Origin: an uncultured Desulfosarcina sp.
GTDB lineage: Bacteria > Desulfobacterota > Desulfobacteria > Desulfobacterales > Desulfosarcinaceae
Length of the DNA stretch: 64,000 nucleotides
Assembly (NCBI GenBank): GCA_963674945.2
Contig: CAXXWQ010000004.1
Span: forward strand, 896,001 to 960,000
Reading direction: 5' to 3'
A program made the translations under genes and the position numbers. The notes beneath the pieces were generated by a model. It saw only the letters and a program-made list of their open reading frames with translations, ran no database searches and was not told the origin of the DNA. This document shows positions 48,825-57,751 of this stretch, piece after piece (position 1 is the first letter of the stretch; every line of letters starts with the position of its first letter).

Positions 48825-49985
48825 ATGCCGACTATGTTTACAAGAGAGTTGTTAAAAATTGAAACCTCTGCTTTTTTGCTTGGCCCCAGGGGGACGGGAA
48901 AGTCTACTTGGATTCAGCAAAACTATAAGGGCGATTCCGTTGTTTACGATCTTTTGAATACTACGGAATTGATTCGACTCAGCCGCGATCCTTCTCTACT
49001 TTACCAGGAAACAGCCCATTTGCCCCCGGACTCATGGGTTATCGTAGATGAAATTCAAAAAGTGCCGGATTTGCTTAATGAAGTCCACAGAATCATAGAG
49101 AACAAAAAGCTCCGCTTCATTTTGTCCGGTTCCAGCGCACGAAAAATTAGAGAGTCTGGAGTGAATTTACTGGCCGGCAGGGCACTTACCTACAATATGT
49201 TCCCTTTGGTGTCCAAGGAGGTCAACTTCGAGCTCGATCTGGAAAAGCAGATCGCATTTGGGATGCTTCCCAGTTCATTTTCAAATGCAAACCCCAAAAA
49301 ATACCTGCAGGCGTATGCGGAAACCTATTTGAAAGAAGAAATCAGGGCGGAAGCATTAACACGAAATTTCGGCAATTTTGCCCGCTTTTTGGAAATAGCC
49401 GCCCGCCAGAACGGCCAACTCACCAACACCGCTGCCATTGCCAGAGATGCGGGGGTAGCCCGGCAGACAGTTCAAGGATATTTCGACATTTTGAGTGATA
49501 CCCTGATCGGCTTTTGGCTTGAACCATGGAAACTGAAAAGGCCCACCAAACAAGTAGGCCATTCCAAATTTTACTTTTTCGATTCCGGCGTTGTCAGGGC
49601 TTTGTCCGGCCGGCTGCCTTATCTGCCAACACATGAAGAGTCAGGGCCGCTGTTTGAGTGCTTCATAATCAACGAACTAAGAGCGTACCTGCACTACACT
49701 GGGCGAGATTATCCGCTTCATTTCTGGAGAAGTCAGGGTGGCGTTGAAGTTGACATCATGCTTGAAACCGCAAGAGGTTATGTAGCCATCGAACTAAAAA
49801 ATGGTACCAGATGGGAGAAAAAGTTCAACCGTGGTATGCACAGATTATCAGATGCGTTGGGCAAAGACAAGGTTGCCTGTATCGGAGTTTTTATGGGTGA
49901 ACGACAGCTTACTATTGATGATGTTATCGTCTTCCCGGCGCTTGATTTTCTTAGGCAGTTATGGAGTGGCGAAATAATCTATTAA
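48825..49985 (+). CDS. AAA_14 ATPase with DUF4143 / C-terminal PD-(D/E)XK-like domain
   Basis: GPRGTGKS, VDEIQK, SGSSA, KFYFFDSG, EVD...IELK. Confidence 0.88.
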   Translation: MPTMFTRELLKIETSAFLLGPRGTGKSTWIQQNYKGDSVVYDLLNTTELIRLSRDPSLLYQETAHLPPDSWVIVDEIQKVPDLLNEVHRIIENKKLRFILSGSSARKIRESGVNLLAGRALTYNMFPLVSKEVNFELDLEKQIAFGMLPSSFSNANPKKYLQAYAETYLKEEIRAEALTRNFGNFARFLEIAARQNGQLTNTAAIARDAGVARQTVQGYFDILSDTLIGFWLEPWKLKRPTKQVGHSKFYFFDSGVVRALSGRLPYLPTHEESGPLFECFIINELRAYLHYTGRDYPLHFWRSQGGVEVDIMLETARGYVAIELKNGTRWEKKFNRGMHRLSDALGKDKVACIGVFMGERQLTIDDVIVFPALDFLRQLWSGEIIY

Positions 49986-50026
49986 TCAGAAAAACGCCCC
50001 GACCCCTCAATTACTTAGTCCCTGTT

Positions 50027-50612
50027 TTAGTTGTTTCTCCTACGCTTCTCCGCTCTATTTAGGTGGTGAGCCACAGAAGTTCCACCACATCCCAGTAAAA
50101 AATCAATTGAACACCGCAATGCATTAACCAATTTAACGATCACGTCTGTGCTTGTGTGGTAACCGGTTTCGATCCTTTTGATTTGATCGACTGGTAACCC
50201 GGAACGTTTAGAAACCTCCCTAATGCTGAACCCCATATCCTCACGCCAATAAATAACGAACACGTTTGCCCATTTCCGGATCTTGGGCCACAGGAAGCCC
50301 ATGTTCTTTATTGGTTTTGGTATGAAGGTATTTGGGTATATCTTCTTTCACCATCGTGTACGGTGAATCAGTCGTTTGGTAAAAAACGTGTCCCCACAAA
50401 AAATAATCCATCGGCTTGCCGGTGGCCATGGATACAGCTAATATGTAATTCAATGAAGGATTTTGGCTGGCTTTTGCGCTGTGAATATTGGATACCACGT
50501 TGATCTTCACACCCACTTTATTTGCCCATTCCGTCCTGGAATAGCCTTCCATCTCCTTTTCAATGCGTCGGAGGACATCTTTAAAATTTATGTCGACGTG
50601 ATATTTTTTCAT
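50027..50612 (-). pseudogene. Second copy of the dual-XRE repressor, frameshifted by a 4-bp duplication
   Basis: Parallels 37468-38046; CCAATAAATAACG at about 50246-50258 versus CCAATAACG in copy 1. Confidence 0.85.
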
Positions 50613-51118
50613 TATCTATTATTTTTTTCTTGACAATAAATTCATTGTATTTGTATTAATAATCTACACACCTTCAATTGAACCTGATCTCATATTATTA
50701 TAGAGTTGTTTCTCCTCAGTATCTTTATAGCATTCAGATCTTTTCAGCTATTGCTCTAATGGTGTAGAAGCAGGTCCTGATATTCAATTTTAATGTAATT
50801 CTAAAACATATGTCAACGAACAGCAAGGACTAATCATTTGATTTTCTATTTGCTAATATCGCTCACGGGAGATTCATTTTCAAATTACATTAATGCCTTA
50901 GCGGAATCAAATCCTATTCCATTAAACGTAGGACAAATAAAAATGGATATCGCTGAAAAACTCGAAAAAAAATTTGCTCGGCCTCTCACCGCAAAAGAGT
51001 TGATGGCCACGAGCTGTTTGTTGATTGCCGTATGGATGAATAAATGTTTGGACGAAGTGAAATCCCACTTTTTGAAACAACACATGAAGAAAGTGGACAT
51101 ATCCAAACGGGGAAGCAA

Positions 51119-51503
51119 TGGTGACAAGTCCAGAACGGTACCGATGTCACAAACGCTATCCGAAGCGATGAAAAAACATTTTTCGTTGATGGACGATCGT
51201 ATCTCGAATCCAAAAACGAAAGTCCTGTGGGATGAAACCCTGGCCTTTCCGTCACTGCGGACCGGCAAGCAATTAACAGACATTCGCCGGCCATTATGGA
51301 ACGTGATTGAAAAACCCGATATCTCGAGAAAGGTGATGCCGCATATTTTGCGACACAGCTTTGCAACCCACATGTTTGAAGCCGACGCGGATTTGAGAAC
51401 GATCCAGGAATTATTGGGCCATGAAGATATTGCCACAACCCAGGTGTACAAGCACGTTGCCATCAATAAGAAGAGGACAGTCATTGATTTGCTCAAACAA
51501 TAA
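51119..51503 (+). pseudogene. C-terminal third of the integrase (N-terminus deleted)
   Basis: Essentially identical to about 39302-39686; lacks the first catalytic Arg region. Confidence 0.88.
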
Positions 51504-51593
51504 CCAATATGACTTTGGACGGCTGATGACAAGCTTGTCATTTTTTCTTCGATTATTTATAGTTTTTTCGGTTACTTATTCTATAACCACCAA

Positions 51594-51639
51594 ACTCTTA
51601 ATCAGTAGGTTGAAGGTTCGATTCCTTCACGGCCCACCA
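51594..51639 (+). mobile_element. att core: 3' half of tRNA-Lys(CTT), copy 2
   Basis: 46-bp exact repeat of 39777-39822. Confidence 0.9.
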
Positions 51640-51859
51640 TCATTCATTTTTATGTTTAATAACGGGAAGTTAGGCTGTTTTGTTGCTTCCCGTTTTTTTG
51701 TACTTTCTTCCATTATTTTAATCAGTTGGTTGAAGATTTGATTGCTTCACGAACAAACCATAAATACTAAGCGAAATCGGTTATTTACACCTGTTTCGCT
51801 TTTTTGTTTTTTAGGGAGTCTCCATTAAAAAAATAACAAGGAAATGACAAGGTGGACAA

Positions 51860-52036
51860 GCGGATAGTAAACCCTCCAATGATTGCCGGCAAGATGAAGT
51901 CTCCCGGGATAGCACTGCCGCCTAAATCGAGACTGCCCTTCATCTTTCCCTTGAATTCGGCCATTGCGCTTTCGGTCTCATCCCGCAAGGCGAGCAGACG
52001 TTTGGCGTACTGGTATAGCAAGACGTCCACCCTTTC
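51860..52036 (-). pseudogene. LysR-family regulator fragment
   Basis: LLYQYAKRLLALRDE...KGSLDLGGSAIPGDFILP; the preceding IDRLAK lies just beyond the other IS66 end (55468-55485). Confidence 0.65.
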
Positions 52037-52117
52037 GTGTGTTTTCGGCAAGCGTGCATGAAATCCGCTGAGAGATGGGATATTATCGGTTGACCCCAAT
52101 AATAAGGAGGCCCGCCG

Positions 52118-52531
52118 ATGAATGACGATATCCAAGATGTTTCTATAATCGCTCCCAGCCTTGAGCAAGTTCAACAGCGGTTTGAATCCTGGCGAAAGCT
52201 GCGAAAGAAACGCACCCGAATTCCCCAAAACCTTTGGCAGGCAGCGGTCGCGCTATCAGAAGAGTACTCCATCTACCACCTGTCAAAGGCCCTGCGTGTA
52301 AACTACACGACGTTAAAGAAAAAAGTTGCCGGTACTCACTTGCCGGAAGAACACCCGTGCGAGATTTTCTCCACACCCTTTATAGAATTGCCGGCTCCGG
52401 CACCCCTTCTACCTGAATCCACCATCGAAATGATCAAAACGAACGGTTCGGTCATGAGAATGAATGTAAAAGGAGCCACCTGTTCCGATCTGGTGGAACT
52501 GGGAAAAGCATTTTTGGCTATGGCTTCATGA
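52118..52531 (+). CDS. IS66 TnpA-like accessory protein
   Basis: HTH-like RIPQNLWQAAV..L; ATGA overlap with tnpB. Confidence 0.7.
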   Translation: MNDDIQDVSIIAPSLEQVQQRFESWRKLRKKRTRIPQNLWQAAVALSEEYSIYHLSKALRVNYTTLKKKVAGTHLPEEHPCEIFSTPFIELPAPAPLLPESTIEMIKTNGSVMRMNVKGATCSDLVELGKAFLAMAS

Positions 52532-52884
52532 TTGCCATCACGCCACACATGCGGATTTTTGTTGCAGTGGAGCCGGCTGATTTTCGAAAAGGCATCGACG
52601 GATTAGCCAAGCTTTGCCGTGACCATCTCAAGGCGGACCCATTTTCCGGTGCCGTATTTGTTTTTCGCAACAAACGGGCCACGGCATTGAAAATTATTGT
52701 ATACGACGGCCAGGGATTCTGGCTTTGTCAAAAGCGGCTGTCGAAAGGGCGGTTTACCTGGTGGCCCAATGGCACGGATGATGTCTTGCGTCGGCTCAAT
52801 GCGTATCAACTGCAATCGCTGATTTGGAACGGAGACCTTGCCACCATCGAGGTCGCCCCGCATTGGAAAAAGATTCATGCATAG
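52528..52884 (+). CDS. tnpB: IS66 accessory protein TnpB
   Basis: PADFRKGIDGL, AVFVFRNK, YDGQGFWLCQKRL. Confidence 0.92.
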   Translation: MIAITPHMRIFVAVEPADFRKGIDGLAKLCRDHLKADPFSGAVFVFRNKRATALKIIVYDGQGFWLCQKRLSKGRFTWWPNGTDDVLRRLNAYQLQSLIWNGDLATIEVAPHWKKIHA

Positions 52885-52925
52885 GGGCTTGCGTTCCAGT
52901 AACGAGTGTGCTATGAATGCCGACC

Positions 52926-53810
52926 ATGGAAACGATTCTCACCTACCGCGGCAAAACCGTAACAGTTCAGGATGCGGCGTTTATCCAGCAGCTGATCGAC
53001 CGAAACCCGAGCGACAGCCGAAGACGCCTTTCCGTCAAACTTTGCCAAGCCTGGGATTGGCGCCAAGCCAACGGCGCCTTTCGGGATATGGTCTGCCGGG
53101 GCTTGATGCTCGCTCTTCACCGGGCCGGGCACATTCGATTGCCGGCCAAAAAAATGACCCCGAACAATCCTTTGGCCAGACGAAAAGAGCCTGAGAACAT
53201 CACCATTGAGCGATGCCCGATAGAAAGCAAGCTGTCAGCCATTACCCCCCTTACATTCCGACAGGTTCGCCGAACCGATGCCGAACCGTTGTTCAACAGC
53301 TTGTTGGAACAGTACCATTATTTGGGCTACACCCAGCCGGTCGGTGAACACCTGAAATACATCGTTTATTCTCAAAAGCGGCCCATCGCGTGCCTGTCCT
53401 GGTCATCGGCCGCCAGGCATATCGGATGCCGTGACCGGTTCATCGGTTGGTCCCAGCATCGGCGAATGGCGAACCTGCATTTGATGGCATACAACAGCCG
53501 CTTTTTGATATTGCCCTGGGTTCGCGTATCACACCTGGCCTCTCATATTCTGGGGCGGATGCGTCGTATCCTGCCAACGGATTGGCAAGCGATATACAAT
53601 CATCCCATTTATTATCTGGAAACCTTCGTGGACAAGGACCGGTTTGCCGGCACCTGTTACAACGCCGCCAACTGGATTTACCTGGGAGATACCACCGGCC
53701 GTGGGAAGAATGACCAAACCCACCGGCCGAACCGATCCATCAAAGCGGTTTGGGGATATCCGCTGGTCAAGATGTTCAGATCTCGTCTTACCGCAGGAAA
53801 AAGCGCATGA
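52926..53810 (+). CDS. DUF4338 (DruA-like) protein
   Basis: YHYLG, RDRFIGW, NSRFLILPWV, LETFVD..RFAGTCYNAANW.YLG.T.GRG. Confidence 0.82.
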   Translation: METILTYRGKTVTVQDAAFIQQLIDRNPSDSRRRLSVKLCQAWDWRQANGAFRDMVCRGLMLALHRAGHIRLPAKKMTPNNPLARRKEPENITIERCPIESKLSAITPLTFRQVRRTDAEPLFNSLLEQYHYLGYTQPVGEHLKYIVYSQKRPIACLSWSSAARHIGCRDRFIGWSQHRRMANLHLMAYNSRFLILPWVRVSHLASHILGRMRRILPTDWQAIYNHPIYYLETFVDKDRFAGTCYNAANWIYLGDTTGRGKNDQTHRPNRSIKAVWGYPLVKMFRSRLTAGKSA

Positions 53811-55366
53811 CACCGCCGCCCATCGAACTTTCGGCCGAGGAGCTTAACGCACTGATCGATCGGGTCAAATCTCGCAGCCTTTTGGATAAGGATTATGCAA
53901 CTATTGCGGCCATGGGCGAGACGATCAACGTGTTGAGTCACAGTGTGGATGAAAAAGCCGCATCCATCAAACGCTTGCTGAAAATGATCTTCGGCGCATC
54001 CACGGAAAAAACCGATACCATTGTCAAAAAACGAAAACCGAAGAGCGCTGATAAAACGCCCAAGGCCAAGAAAAAAGGCCATGGCCGAAATGGGGCTGAT
54101 GATTACACCGGTGCCGAGAAGATCACGGTGTCTCATGGTGAGCTTAAACATAAAGATCCGTGCCCGCTTTGTCCCAAGGGCAAGGTCTATGTATATAAAC
54201 AGCCCAAAACCCTCATCCGTGTCACCGGCACCTCGCCGTTAACAGCGTCGATATACGAGCTGGAAAAATTGCGCTGTAATCTGTGTGGAGAGATTTTTAC
54301 GGCCGATGCCCCACGGGATGTCGGCGAGGAAAAATACGATGCATCCGCCGGAGCAATGATTGCTCTTTTAAAATATGGCAACGGCTTTCCTTTCTACCGG
54401 CTTCAAAATCTGCAGGACAGTATCGGCATACCGCTGCCTGCATCGACCCAATGGGATATTGTCAGGGATTTTTATTGGCACGCCTACCCGGCCTTTGATG
54501 AACTGATCCGGCAAGCGGCTGGCGCAAAGCTGATCCATAATGACGACACCACCATGAAAATTCTTTCTTTGGTCAACGAAACACAAGATGCCAAAAGAAA
54601 GGGCATTTTTACCAGCGGCATGGTGGCGGTGTCGGACGATCACAAAATCGGGCTGTTTTTTACCGGAAACAACCATGCCGGAGAAAACCTGGCGGATCTA
54701 CTTACCAAGCGCCAGGCCGATCTGGGTCCGCCGATCCAGATGTGCGACGCGCTGTCGAGAAATGTGCCCAAGGATTTTGAAACCCTTTTGGCCAACTGCA
54801 TCTCACATGGAAGGCGGCGCTTCGTGGATGTATACGATAACTTCCCGGACGAATGCACTCATGTACTCAACGTGTTGGGCAAGGTGTATAAAAACGATGC
54901 CGATGCCAGGGAGCAAAACCTTTCTGACGATCAGCGCCTCGAATACCATCGGAACCATAGCGGTTCGTTGATGAAGGATCTTAGAGACTGGTTTGATGAG
55001 CAGTTCGAGGAAAAAAATGTGGAGCCCAACTCCGGGCTTGGCCAGGCCATCAAGTATATGTGCAACCACTGGGAGAAACTGACCCTGTTTTTACGTCAGC
55101 CGGGTGCCCCGTTAGACAATAATGTTTGTGAACGCGCCTTGAAAAAAGCGATTTTGAATCGGAAAAACGCCTTGTTCTACAAGACTGAACGTGGTGCCCG
55201 AGTCGGTGACCTGTTTATGAGCCTGATCCACACCTGCGAACTATGCACTGCAAATCCTTTTGACTATCTGGTTGCCATCCGGGAACACTCAGAGCAGGTG
55301 AAAGCCCGCCCGGATCAATGGATGCCGTGGAATTATGAACGGCAGACCTCTGAAATCAACTCCTAA
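53807..55366 (+). CDS. tnpC: IS66 DDE transposase TnpC
   Basis: Zn ribbon CPLC...CNLC, HNDDT, CDA, C..HGRRRF, LDNNVCERALK. Confidence 0.9.
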   Translation: MTPPPIELSAEELNALIDRVKSRSLLDKDYATIAAMGETINVLSHSVDEKAASIKRLLKMIFGASTEKTDTIVKKRKPKSADKTPKAKKKGHGRNGADDYTGAEKITVSHGELKHKDPCPLCPKGKVYVYKQPKTLIRVTGTSPLTASIYELEKLRCNLCGEIFTADAPRDVGEEKYDASAGAMIALLKYGNGFPFYRLQNLQDSIGIPLPASTQWDIVRDFYWHAYPAFDELIRQAAGAKLIHNDDTTMKILSLVNETQDAKRKGIFTSGMVAVSDDHKIGLFFTGNNHAGENLADLLTKRQADLGPPIQMCDALSRNVPKDFETLLANCISHGRRRFVDVYDNFPDECTHVLNVLGKVYKNDADAREQNLSDDQRLEYHRNHSGSLMKDLRDWFDEQFEEKNVEPNSGLGQAIKYMCNHWEKLTLFLRQPGAPLDNNVCERALKKAILNRKNALFYKTERGARVGDLFMSLIHTCELCTANPFDYLVAIREHSEQVKARPDQWMPWNYERQTSEINS

Positions 55367-55521
55367 CCGTGGGCAGGGGCTTATCACCCTGCCTACGTAG
55401 CCATTCTGTCAGCACCGTAGCCCCGCCTTGAGAAAAATCTGCTTACGCACCGTTGCCGAAAGGACACCTTTGCAAGGCGATCGATTCCGTGTCTCATTTT
55501 GGACTTAATAACTGTTGAAAC

Positions 55522-55550
55522 TTGACACATTGGTTTCATTTGGGTATCTT
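55522..55550 (+). promoter_or_regulatory. sigma70-type promoter of the Xre-RES operon
   Basis: TTGACA-17bp-TATCTT, overlapped by palindrome TTGACAGTGTCAA. Confidence 0.6.
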
Positions 55551-55592
55551 GACAGTGTCAAATAAAACTATCAGATTGAAGGGCTTTGAACA

Positions 55593-55997
55593 ATGGAACA
55601 AACCTGCTTGGCATCGCTCGGATCAGAAAACAACCAAAGCCTGATCGCCCTGTGCAAATCTGGTTTAAGTGCCAAAATATTTGATGAAGTGGCCGATTGT
55701 TTACAGGTGCCGGACATCCGCCTAGCCAACATCATCAATTTAAAAAAAAGCACGCTCATCAGGCGAAAACGTGAAGGTCGGCTAAATTTTGAAGAGTCAG
55801 AACGGCTGTATCGTATCGTTCGACTGTTTAACATGGCTGAAAAAATTTTAGGCTCAGGTGAACATGCGCGGGAATGGCTGAACACACCCTCCAATGATTT
55901 CGAGGGCAAATCACCGCTCGATTATGCGGATAATGAAATCGGTGCAAGGGAGGTTGAGGCCGTATTAGACAGGATCGGTGACGGAGTGATCTTTTGA
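55593..55997 (+). CDS. Xre/MbcA/ParS antitoxin
   Basis: ESERLYR, AREWLNTP...G.SPLD, GAREVE. Confidence 0.9.
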   Translation: MEQTCLASLGSENNQSLIALCKSGLSAKIFDEVADCLQVPDIRLANIINLKKSTLIRRKREGRLNFEESERLYRIVRLFNMAEKILGSGEHAREWLNTPSNDFEGKSPLDYADNEIGAREVEAVLDRIGDGVIF

Positions 55998-56455
55998 TCA
56001 GAGCCTGGCGTCTCGTTGCGGCTACATATGCCGACCGGATCATGTCTGGAGGCGGTGCTTTCCGCCATGGAGGGCGATGGAACAGCCAGGGAAGAGCTGT
56101 GGTTTATATGTCTGAAAGCCTGTCACTCTGCGTTCTTGAGAACCTGGTGCACATGGTAAAACTGCCCGTGATGCGTAGCTTCAAGAGCATATGGGTGGAT
56201 ATCCCCGAATCATTAATTCACGCTTTAGAAAAAAAAGATCTGCCCTCTTCATGGAAAGAATTACCTGCTCCGGAAGCCACTAAAGAGATCGGCGACAAAT
56301 GGTTTGATGCAAAGGTGTCTGCTGTTTTGAAAGTGCCAAGTACTGTTGTTTCGGATGAATGGAACTTTGCACTTAATCCGGCACATCCGGATTTCGAAAA
56401 ATTGGTAATTGGTGAGATCCGCGATTTTGAATTCGATGAACGTCTATATCCATAG
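55994..56455 (+). CDS. RES-domain NAD+-consuming toxin
   Basis: GGRWNS.G...VY.SESLSL..LE, VPS, N..LNP.HPDF. Confidence 0.9.
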   Translation: MIRAWRLVAATYADRIMSGGGAFRHGGRWNSQGRAVVYMSESLSLCVLENLVHMVKLPVMRSFKSIWVDIPESLIHALEKKDLPSSWKELPAPEATKEIGDKWFDAKVSAVLKVPSTVVSDEWNFALNPAHPDFEKLVIGEIRDFEFDERLYP

Positions 56456-56638
56456 ATACTATCACTAATTCAGACAGGCCCGATTATTGGATTTGACTCA
56501 CAATGGAACGAAAAATTACGCTAAACTTATAGATGCCCGGTTGTGGGGTTTGTTTAGATATAGGGAAAAATCCAACAATCTTGTTTCAATCCGCCGGTTC
56601 CGGTCCAGAGCGTCTTTAAAAATCCAGAAACAAAAAAG

Positions 56639-57751
56639 TCATTCACTCCGATTCACCTTTTCAAATAAAGGTTTAATCTTTTTGTCCAATAAATGCTCAG
56701 CCTGCTCCAGACCGCGAATTGGATAGCTATGTAGATCCAGATACAGCTGAATATCTGAGACAACTCGAAGGCTATCGATAATTCGGCTGTCATGAAAAAC
56801 GGAATGCTTGTAATAGGGAAGCATCAAAATCAGATTTGCCCCTTGTTCTGCGTTTTCAAGGTTCATCTGTTTTTCAAAATACTCCAATGCCTTTTCATTG
56901 CCGACGTACATATGAACTTCTTGATAAGCAGCATATGAGGCAACCAGATTGCCGCCGGCCTGAACACTAAGCGCATAATTGACATTGGAAGGTATTTTCA
57001 GATTTCGAATCTTATCCAAAACGTCAACCGAACTCGTTGCCATCAAAAAATAGCTGAAATTTTTGTTTTTATTGAAATTATAATTTCTGGTCCAGTCATC
57101 GAGGATGCCTACAGGATCTCGAAGTTTTATTTTGGAATTAATGCGTGAAATATATTTTCGTTTTTCAAGCTCTTTTGCCATGCGCGAAACAAAACCTGGA
57201 TCCAAATGAACCCTTTGGGCCAACTCCCTGACTCCCCACAGATGCCCCGCATCTTTAAGAATAGATCGAAGGATGAGACTGGCTTTATCTGAAAACGGCC
57301 CCCTGCCCTTCCGTTCTTCCGGAAACTTATTTGGGAAACCAGTTCGCTCCACATAGAGGCTTCTAAATTTGATGAACACGTTTCCGGAAAGGTCAATAAA
57401 ACAAACACCCTGATCCCGACAAATGTTCTGCCGCCGTTGGCTTAAATAAGGAGCAGCCAATACCGGCACTGCATCATTAGACGCGTTTGCTATCGTCTTG
57501 AGTCTGGATATCTTGTCTTTCAACACTGAAAGACTGGTTTTCGCCACAACCTCAATAGTCAACTGAAAACGCAAATCACCATACCGGACTCGAGCAACAA
57601 GATCTGGCGAATCGGCTTCGTTTGATATCGAGTCTGGCACCATGTTGATTTTCAGATCGTCTAAAGATAGAAGCCCTTCTAAGGATCTTTCCAGCTCTTT
57701 TTTTATTTTTTGTTCAGATCTCATGTTGTCTACTTTTAGAATGTTGTCCAT
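56639..57751 (-). CDS. AbiEi-like antitoxin (370 aa), copy 2; partner NTase reduced to ~14 codons
   Basis: Near-identical to 43409-44521; downstream similarity stops at about 56604. Confidence 0.75.
   Translation of the reverse strand: MDNILKVDNMRSEQKIKKELERSLEGLLSLDDLKINMVPDSISNEADSPDLVARVRYGDLRFQLTIEVVAKTSLSVLKDKISRLKTIANASNDAVPVLAAPYLSQRRQNICRDQGVCFIDLSGNVFIKFRSLYVERTGFPNKFPEERKGRGPFSDKASLILRSILKDAGHLWGVRELAQRVHLDPGFVSRMAKELEKRKYISRINSKIKLRDPVGILDDWTRNYNFNKNKNFSYFLMATSSVDVLDKIRNLKIPSNVNYALSVQAGGNLVASYAAYQEVHMYVGNEKALEYFEKQMNLENAEQGANLILMLPYYKHSVFHDSRIIDSLRVVSDIQLYLDLHSYPIRGLEQAEHLLDKKIKPLFEKVNRSE

Follow-up and report, generated by a model that had tools for sequence, protein, structure and literature searches.

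What is a fourth, intact gene doing inside an insertion sequence (IS) of the IS66 family? The question is raised by a 64,000-nucleotide stretch of an uncultured Desulfosarcina sp. genome (GCA_963674945.2, contig CAXXWQ010000004.1, positions 896,001 to 960,000; hereafter the window), where a gene of the DUF4338 family lies between tnpB and tnpC. Insertion sequences are usually viewed as carrying only transposition genes or distal cargo, and the canonical IS66 organisation is tnpA-tnpB-tnpC (IS66, IS679). We found that insertion sequences bearing a DUF4338 gene are real and widespread; the function of the gene is predicted. Our preferred reading, to which we give a probability of roughly 40%, is that it encodes a self-regulated, transposase-coupled DNA-adenine modifier of the type of the phage Mu protein Mom, which would shield element DNA from restriction. 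We use "cassette" for the gene and the promoter box upstream of it.

The element and its mobility

The 3,431-bp element occurs five times in the host genome. All five copies are identical, and a perfect 8-bp target duplication flanks four of them. Because identical copies carry target duplications, the element ends are exact and the four-gene form has transposed recently. The four-gene element is thus real and recently mobile. Its features, in window coordinates, are as follows.

52037..55467, + strand: IS66-family element, 3,431 bp (identical genomic copies with target duplications)
52037..52057, + strand: left terminal inverted repeat, GTGT... (element copies, ends of related loci)
52118..52531, + strand: tnpA-like open reading frame (ORF), 137 amino acids (aa), ATGA overlap with tnpB (position, homologues upstream of tnpB in related loci)
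52528..52884, + strand: tnpB, IS66 accessory protein, 118 aa (PF05717, 2e-29; NF033819)
52888..52896, + strand: 9-bp box CTTGCGTTC over a predicted -35 hexamer, candidate operator (conservation upstream of the gene)
52909..52917, + strand: predicted extended -10 (TG-n-TATGAA), 17 nt past the -35 (conserved positions)
52926..53810, + strand: DUF4338 gene, 294 aa, winged-helix-like N-terminal domain and Mom-like GNAT domain (PF14236, structure model)
52926..53165, + strand: N-terminal domain, about 80 aa, winged-helix-like, predicted DNA-binding (model, predicted local distance difference test (pLDDT) 90)
53235..53798, + strand: GNAT domain, residues 107-294 (Foldseek, VIA, conservation), with candidate catalytic residues H134, Y135, R195, S209, D239, R242 and Y248
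53807..55366, + strand: tnpC, DDE transposase, 519 aa, ATGA-coupled to the DUF4338 gene (PF03050, NF033517)
55447..55467, - strand: right terminal inverted repeat, ...ACAC (repeat match, element copies)

An earlier note on this DNA had placed an intact DUF4338 reading frame between tnpB and tnpC, overlapping tnpC by ATGA (53807-53810) and lying inside the terminal repeats. This arrangement was borne out, with a refined start. The start is most likely ATG 52926, which gives the 294-aa length shared by most close homologues. The alternative, ATG 52917, falls within the predicted -10 hexamer and was rejected on both grounds, although residue numbers in this text are counted from it. TnpC matches PF03050 (1e-48) and NF033517 (206 bits against a cut-off of 180) and has the conserved cysteines and acidic residues. 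The tnpA-like ORF has no Pfam or NCBIfam match, and its ratio of nonsynonymous to synonymous substitution rates (dN/dS) is 0.14-0.20 in five of six pairs, the remaining pair being saturated. An Rfam scan of 50000-57000 gave no match.

The two ends form an imperfect inverted repeat of 21 nt, 81% matched. Together with the exact copy boundaries, this confirms that they read GTGT...ACAC in place of the GTAA termini typical of IS66. TnpC, TnpB, terminal repeats and the 8-bp target duplication, further marks of the family, are present, and the place expected for tnpA holds the 137-aa ORF, which is conserved in relatives but matches no family. GTAA is not strictly defining, as a GTGA end is reported for ISDge4 (PMC12898284; statements on this and the other papers cited hold for the portions of text available). 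Among 71 related TnpC loci with detectable ends, the left end reads GTGT in 48 and GTGA in 13 (61/71 together), and an 8-bp target duplication is found in 13/71. GTG.. ends are the norm in the TnpC clade, DUF4338 gene present or absent. We therefore rejected the idea that GTGT ends mark the cassette, since cassette-less elements carry them too. A second IS66 element in the host genome is about 2.5 kb long, has GTAA ends and lacks DUF4338 (e.g. C2:12916-15409); tblastn finds 11 copies, and two copies of the element studied here lie within a few kb of this second element on contig C4.

The window copy is the only one of the five without a target duplication. It splits a degenerate regulator fragment (51785-52036 and 55468-55490), which from its sequence we take to be LysR-type. 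The flanks align at 86% identity to an intact LysR paralogue (contig C2, near 204600), and relative to this paralogue a 13-nt net deletion at the insertion site removes the duplication. Contigs of four sequencing runs contained no clean empty site or circle joint, though contigs cannot show absence.

Spread and repeated loss of the cassette

We surveyed gene order in the best 80 of 182 genome loci encoding a DUF4338 relative. tnpB lies upstream and tnpC downstream in 59 of the 80, so the arrangement is not a one-off; tnpC lies downstream in 64. The closest named relatives in this set (86-88%) come from Desulfosarcina and Desulfobacteraceae. Its hosts include Desulfobacterota-type deltaproteobacteria, Acidobacteriota, Planctomycetota, Gemmatimonadota, Nitrospiria, Chloroflexota, Bacteroidales, Burkholderiales, Syntrophomonadaceae and one archaeal bin. 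The gene overlaps its downstream neighbour, stop to start, in 67 of 94 loci. At three loci (L028, L031 and L036) the element is 5.4 kb long and has some 1.9 kb of additional DNA between tnpC and the right end.

Transposases of other types follow the gene or are fused to it as well: IS630, IS1634, IS4, IS701, ISAs1, ISKra4 and IS1182-like, at least seven families beyond IS66. The earlier note's proposal of an IS66 subgroup is right in that the gene occurs in IS66 and too narrow given these other partners. Exceptions to the common order among the best 80 loci are IS66 transposases without tnpA or tnpB next to the gene (L014, L018, L061, L073, L079) and next genes of IS630 (L048-L052, L060, L067), IS1634 (L038) or IS1182-like (L013) type. 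The gene lies inside terminal repeats in L014, L038, L061 and L073. It does so as well in a 2,513-bp IS630 element present in five copies, where the cassette comes first inside the left end. No terminal repeats were found at L013, where adjacency alone is established. Distant relatives from a sample of the host phylum precede ISKra4, IS4, IS1182-like and IS66 transposases. At L237-L268, a transposase-type Pfam match was obtained for 17 of 25 downstream ORFs (one weak); NCBIfam assigned two of the other eight to ISKra4 and two weakly to IS1182-like families, and four had no match. A contig with two different DUF4338 genes within a few kb was seen at L240 and at L209 with L233 (G123:C69), which suggests nested or clustered cassette-bearing elements.

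Fusions were examined in the best 120 of 2,758 longer homologues, with domains counted by hand. Transposase-type domains occur in 119 of the 120. The partners are IS4/Tn5-type in 78, PF13546 in 24, PF03050 in 12 and PF01609 only in 3; one protein has PF13808, one a set of helix-turn-helix domains and one nothing listed. Sequencing artefacts may account for some of the fusions that have a single member. At E<=1e-10 the family comprises 4,647 cluster representatives (50% identity), and 68 of 401 sampled genomes of the host phylum contain a relative.

The reverse survey, of the best 80 of 587 metagenome loci for TnpC, gave a different picture of how firmly the gene is held. It lies wholly or partly upstream in 55 loci and is absent from 21, with no room to tell in four, and is thus missing from 21 of 76 assessable relatives. 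tnpB immediately precedes tnpC in 18 TnpC loci, and two further ones look truncated or chimeric. Deleted remnants of the DUF4338 gene remain in L107 and L112. In a TnpC tree of 117 of the 125 loci (unknown and broken loci were left out), cassette-less elements branch from within cassette-bearing groups at four or more points; by this phylogeny the cassette has been lost at least four times. Cassette-less elements keep GTGT ends, show a perfect 8-bp duplication in 3 of 12 cases with detected ends, occur as identical 2,637-bp forms at differing sites and have a tnpC dN/dS of 0.11-0.17 (7 pairs). Because of the nested losses and of the intact ends, duplications and selection in cassette-less elements, the DUF4338 gene is ancestral in the TnpC clade yet not needed in cis. 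The earlier note's description of it as a core gene was accordingly given up.

Where present, the gene appears to be co-inherited with tnpC. Distances for the two genes correlate at 0.63 and the nearest neighbour is the same in 54 of 80 cases, figures that shared descent alone can yield. The dN/dS of the DUF4338 gene is 0.07-0.24 (22 pairs) against 0.09-0.27 for tnpC. By this measure purifying selection is as strong on the gene as on the transposase, and selection maintains it.

The DUF4338 protein and its promoter box

The DUF4338 protein matches PF14236 (3e-32, profile positions 37-225 of 297), and its structure was modelled at a pLDDT of 86. In the model the protein has a GNAT fold. Among PDB structures, Mu Mom (8bv8) is the top match of this domain with Foldseek (E 1.7e-6; next 3.3e-5) and with VIA (Z 12.6, root-mean-square deviation 4.3, 170 aligned; next 11.6). 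The resemblance to Mom and GNAT proteins that had been suggested from motifs alone thus holds up, by a narrow margin. Most matches in a viral structure library were uncharacterised phage proteins, and a Mom came seventh. Sequence comparison is less telling. PF25680 (Mom) scores 18.2 bits (E 0.002), below the cut-off of 27.1, and 22.6 bits for a fused relative. Neither the protein nor an alignment matched any PDB sequence. Against Mom alone, a profile built from close relatives did not reach significance, and a diverse profile matched a single Mom weakly. The N-terminal domain resembles mostly winged-helix proteins in VIA (best Z 5.8, weak), and Foldseek gave no match for it at E<=0.001.

Mu Mom transfers glycine from Gly-tRNA onto adenine N6 in DNA, and its important residues are H58, Y59, R111, S124, D149, R151 and Y159 together with a helix-turn-helix-like insertion (241-aa numbering; PMC13219725). 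In a weak profile alignment with 118 Mom sequences, the Mom HY, S, D and G-x-x-Y-x-A-x-N elements fall on H134/Y135, S209, D239 and G245-N252. Mom H58/Y59, S124, D149 and Y159 would thus correspond to H134/Y135, S209, D239 and Y248, all conserved, and R242 sits one residue off Mom R151. We scored conservation in 70 of 149 representatives of 50% clusters, those of full length, and in 118 of 120 fused proteins. H134 is kept in 70/70 and 117/118, R195 in 70/70 and 118/118, S209 in 69/70 and 117/118, Y248 in 67/70 and 118/118, and D/E239 in 62/70 and 115/118, respectively. The Mom-like motifs pointed out previously therefore include candidate active-site residues that are near-invariant.

A short sequence upstream of the gene is conserved as well. 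Of 104 distinct upstream regions, 88 contain TTGCGTTC exactly and 98 contain it with at most one mismatch; the corresponding rates in random windows are 1.3% and 3.5%. Each of the nine box positions is kept in 94-98 of the 98 box-bearing regions, while the spacer drifts. A TG-n-TA-type -10 lies 17 nt beyond the box and the start codon follows a few bases on (8 nt past the predicted -10 in the window); a Shine-Dalgarno-like motif precedes the gene in only 3 of the 104 regions. We consider it likely that this promoter is used and that translation starts on a leaderless or nearly leaderless transcript.

The box is tied to the DUF4338 gene. It accompanies the gene into IS630, IS1634, IS1182-like and tnpC-only IS66 elements, and in a set of 38 diverse loci distinct boxes of other subfamilies occupy the matching position (CTGGCGTCC, CTGGACTC, CTGGACA). 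Within one mismatch it is found in 68 of 71 cassette-bearing tnpB spacers against 1 of 15 cassette-less ones. Because of this contrast, we think it reasonably probable that the box is a self-operator bound by the N-terminal domain; alternatively, it may be merely a tuned -35. The loose Mom consensus SASNY, seen within some boxes, was dropped as a candidate, being too permissive and absent from the window box. In a cassette-less clade (L102, L124, L127, L129, L135, L147, L151, L161) the box is lost and another motif (CCGATAAT/CCGATAAC), possibly a replacement promoter, lies further upstream in the tnpB-tnpC spacer.

The surroundings of the element were also annotated. It sits in an AT-richer island with an Xre/MbcA-RES toxin-antitoxin pair, an AbiEi-like regulator and an AAA_14/DUF4143 ATPase (55593-56455, 56639-57751, 48825-49985). 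The regulator matches AbiEi_2 and, below cut-off, a MarR HTH profile. A truncated tyrosine integrase (PF00589) and two tRNA-like 3' fragments (51598-51631, 51718-51751) span 50838-51751 and resemble the remains of attachment sites of a genomic island. Similar stretches recur at three further places on contig C4, and ARAGORN found no full tRNA in the window.

Proposed function and comparison with known systems

We propose that box and two-domain gene form a portable, optional cassette ahead of the transposase gene. One internal promoter would drive both enzyme and transposase, and the N-terminal domain would likely bind the box, limiting its own expression and that of the transposase. The Mom-like domain is predicted to put an acyl or aminoacyl group on DNA adenines; adenine modification of the Mom type is, as a part of the model, somewhat favoured. 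Element DNA modified in this way would most likely be shielded from host restriction. A copy entering a protein-free cell would produce a short joint burst of enzyme and transposase, after which the protein would damp its own promoter. Such self-damping would limit toxicity, because Mom over-expression is lethal (PMC7261163).

Several observations weigh against this reading. Cassette-less elements persist and transpose, so any benefit must be conditional. The gene occurs in only 2 of 72,556 plasmid records, both distant, and in three loci among viral contigs. This rarity argues against shielding because anti-restriction should matter on such vehicles, although in our judgement these collections under-represent the hosts concerned. 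In VIA the lead of Mom over generic GNATs is only 1.0 Z, and the profile-profile comparison with Mom shows weak similarity (15% probability, E 0.0018). The profile alignment does not pair R195 with Mom R101/R111, a pairing that comes from spacing and strand position, and both alignment and model have a short loop where Mom has its essential helix-turn-helix-like insertion. The winged-helix assignment is weak, with a Z under 6. As for the box, the 15 cassette-less spacers represent about 4-6 lineages and not 15 independent cases, so that a nominal P value exaggerates the contrast, the box may have gone from them simply by deletion, and some subfamilies among the 38 diverse loci have leaders and no visible box. 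Enzyme activity, box binding and promoter use are all predictions.

These observations bear on other explanations. Dam methylation gates IS10 and IS50, and the mark might likewise be a self-regulatory switch, with the enzyme anchored at its box and modifying promoter or end adenines to gate expression or end cleavage. Such a switch would fit the position of the box on the -35 and its variation between subfamilies. It would also fit the stable N-terminal fusions to transposases, which would tether the enzyme to element ends, and the scarcity on plasmids and phages, which suits a role inside the host chromosome. We saw no conserved adenine motif common to the ends of the different IS families encountered, however, and cassette-less elements have the same GTGT ends; we regard the switch as somewhat unlikely. 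Related to both ideas, and possible though doubtful, is a portable IS control module in which a sequence-specific winged-helix domain would anchor a tRNA-dependent Mom-type adenine modifier at its own promoter, so that at least eight IS families would hypermodify DNA to gate or protect transposition. Instead of DNA, the substrate acylated might be a protein, such as the transposase or a host factor, or a tRNA, as with the GNAT toxins that act on aminoacyl-tRNA. Generic protein and small-molecule GNATs score nearly as well as Mom (Z 11.6 against 12.6), the Mom DNA-binding insertion is missing, and GNAT substrates are not predictable from structure alone (PMC13219725). Nevertheless, the HY, R, S, D, Y set matches Mom, whose R101 is conserved among Mom homologues and not across GNATs (PMC7261163); unrelated transposase partners over short branches speak against a specific protein partner, and the element has no antitoxin gene. 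This explanation is unlikely.

Two further possibilities treat the gene as a passenger. A hitch-hiking cassette would offer a promoter and exploit IS mobility while its enzyme served its own persistence or the host, for instance as an addiction mark. Movement between IS families, repeated loss and continued selection on cassette-less elements speak for it. Against it, the gene immediately precedes the transposase or is fused with it and is not placed as distal cargo; we hold this account to be improbable. Anti-phage cargo of the Druantia DruA type seems very improbable. The earlier note equated DUF4338 with the DruA domain. The PF14236 match and distant homology (probability 95-97%, with a common RD-x-x-IGW) to two DruA proteins that are PADLOC-positive (L207 at 2e-109, L208 at 3e-82) sustain the family tie. 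Yet the window protein matches no PADLOC family at E<=1, its gene neighbours are tnpB and tnpC inside the IS ends and not druB-druE, for which the element has no room, and in alignments the two DruA proteins (376-406 aa) lack the HY, R195, S209, ETFVD and Y248 positions. A role as Druantia cargo was rejected for want of a PADLOC match and of these residues in DruA. The DruA gene at L208:1357-3648 adjoins a CARF-domain gene.

The locus matters because the predicted enzyme is conserved, comes with a promoter box of its own and is tied, by coupling or fusion, to the transposases of no fewer than eight families. If DNA is indeed modified, Mom-type hypermodification would be widespread in cellular genomes, and insertion sequences would own a layer of control or protection not yet described. 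The portable-module reading, if true, would imply DNA hypermodifiers programmable by domain. A direct test is open through naturally occurring pairs, one member with the cassette and one without. Only 2 of 30 PF14236 loci fetched from the phylum sample are DruA-like, and because most matches there are the IS-type protein, Druantia counts by Pfam alone would be too high.

We compared the element with known systems. It shares with canonical IS66 the tnpB and tnpC families, gene order, GT-starting terminal repeats and 8-bp target duplication, and differs in its internal promoter, the fourth gene coupled to tnpC and GTGT/GTGA ends; its TnpC is 24% identical to that of the GTAA-ended IS66 of the same genome. 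The GNAT fold of DUF4338 is already known: a DUF4338 domain fused to DndF is termed a GCN5-like acetyltransferase, in phosphorothioate-linked defence fusions unlike the element described here, and the available main text makes no mention of Mom, DruA or Druantia (PMC10853773). We did not find the transposase link described. Available portions of two papers place Mom-family enzymes in phage and bacterial systems and do not mention IS elements (PMC7824862, PMC4738411), and the literature searched, mostly at listing level and excluding ISfinder, linked no DUF4338 or Mom-like gene to insertion sequences. Druantia type I DruA shares the PF14236 family and the RD-x-x-IGW...R...L segment, whereas the DUF4338 protein is shorter, lacks druB-E and retains the Mom-type residues.

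Mu Mom (PF25680, 8BV8) is the closest enzyme in predicted structure. The two proteins have a GNAT fold in common, and in both the HY, S, D and G-x-x-Y-x-A-x-N elements come in the same order with similar spacing. They differ in sequence (14-16% identity), in the added N-terminal domain and RD-x-x-IGW insert of the DUF4338 protein, and in setting, Mom being encoded among phage late genes and DUF4338 in insertion sequences. The element protein is therefore Mom-like by prediction, yet it falls below the PF25680 cut-off and lacks the insertion, two marks of the Mom family. Transporter IS elements carry passenger genes, and transposons encode anti-restriction proteins such as ArdA and ArdD. Common to these and our element are a non-transposase gene inside the IS ends and a possible anti-restriction role. 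The DUF4338 gene differs in being coupled or fused to the transposase, sharing its predicted promoter and recurring across IS families, and where ArdA- and ArdD-type proteins are DNA mimics, the DUF4338 protein is a predicted enzyme.

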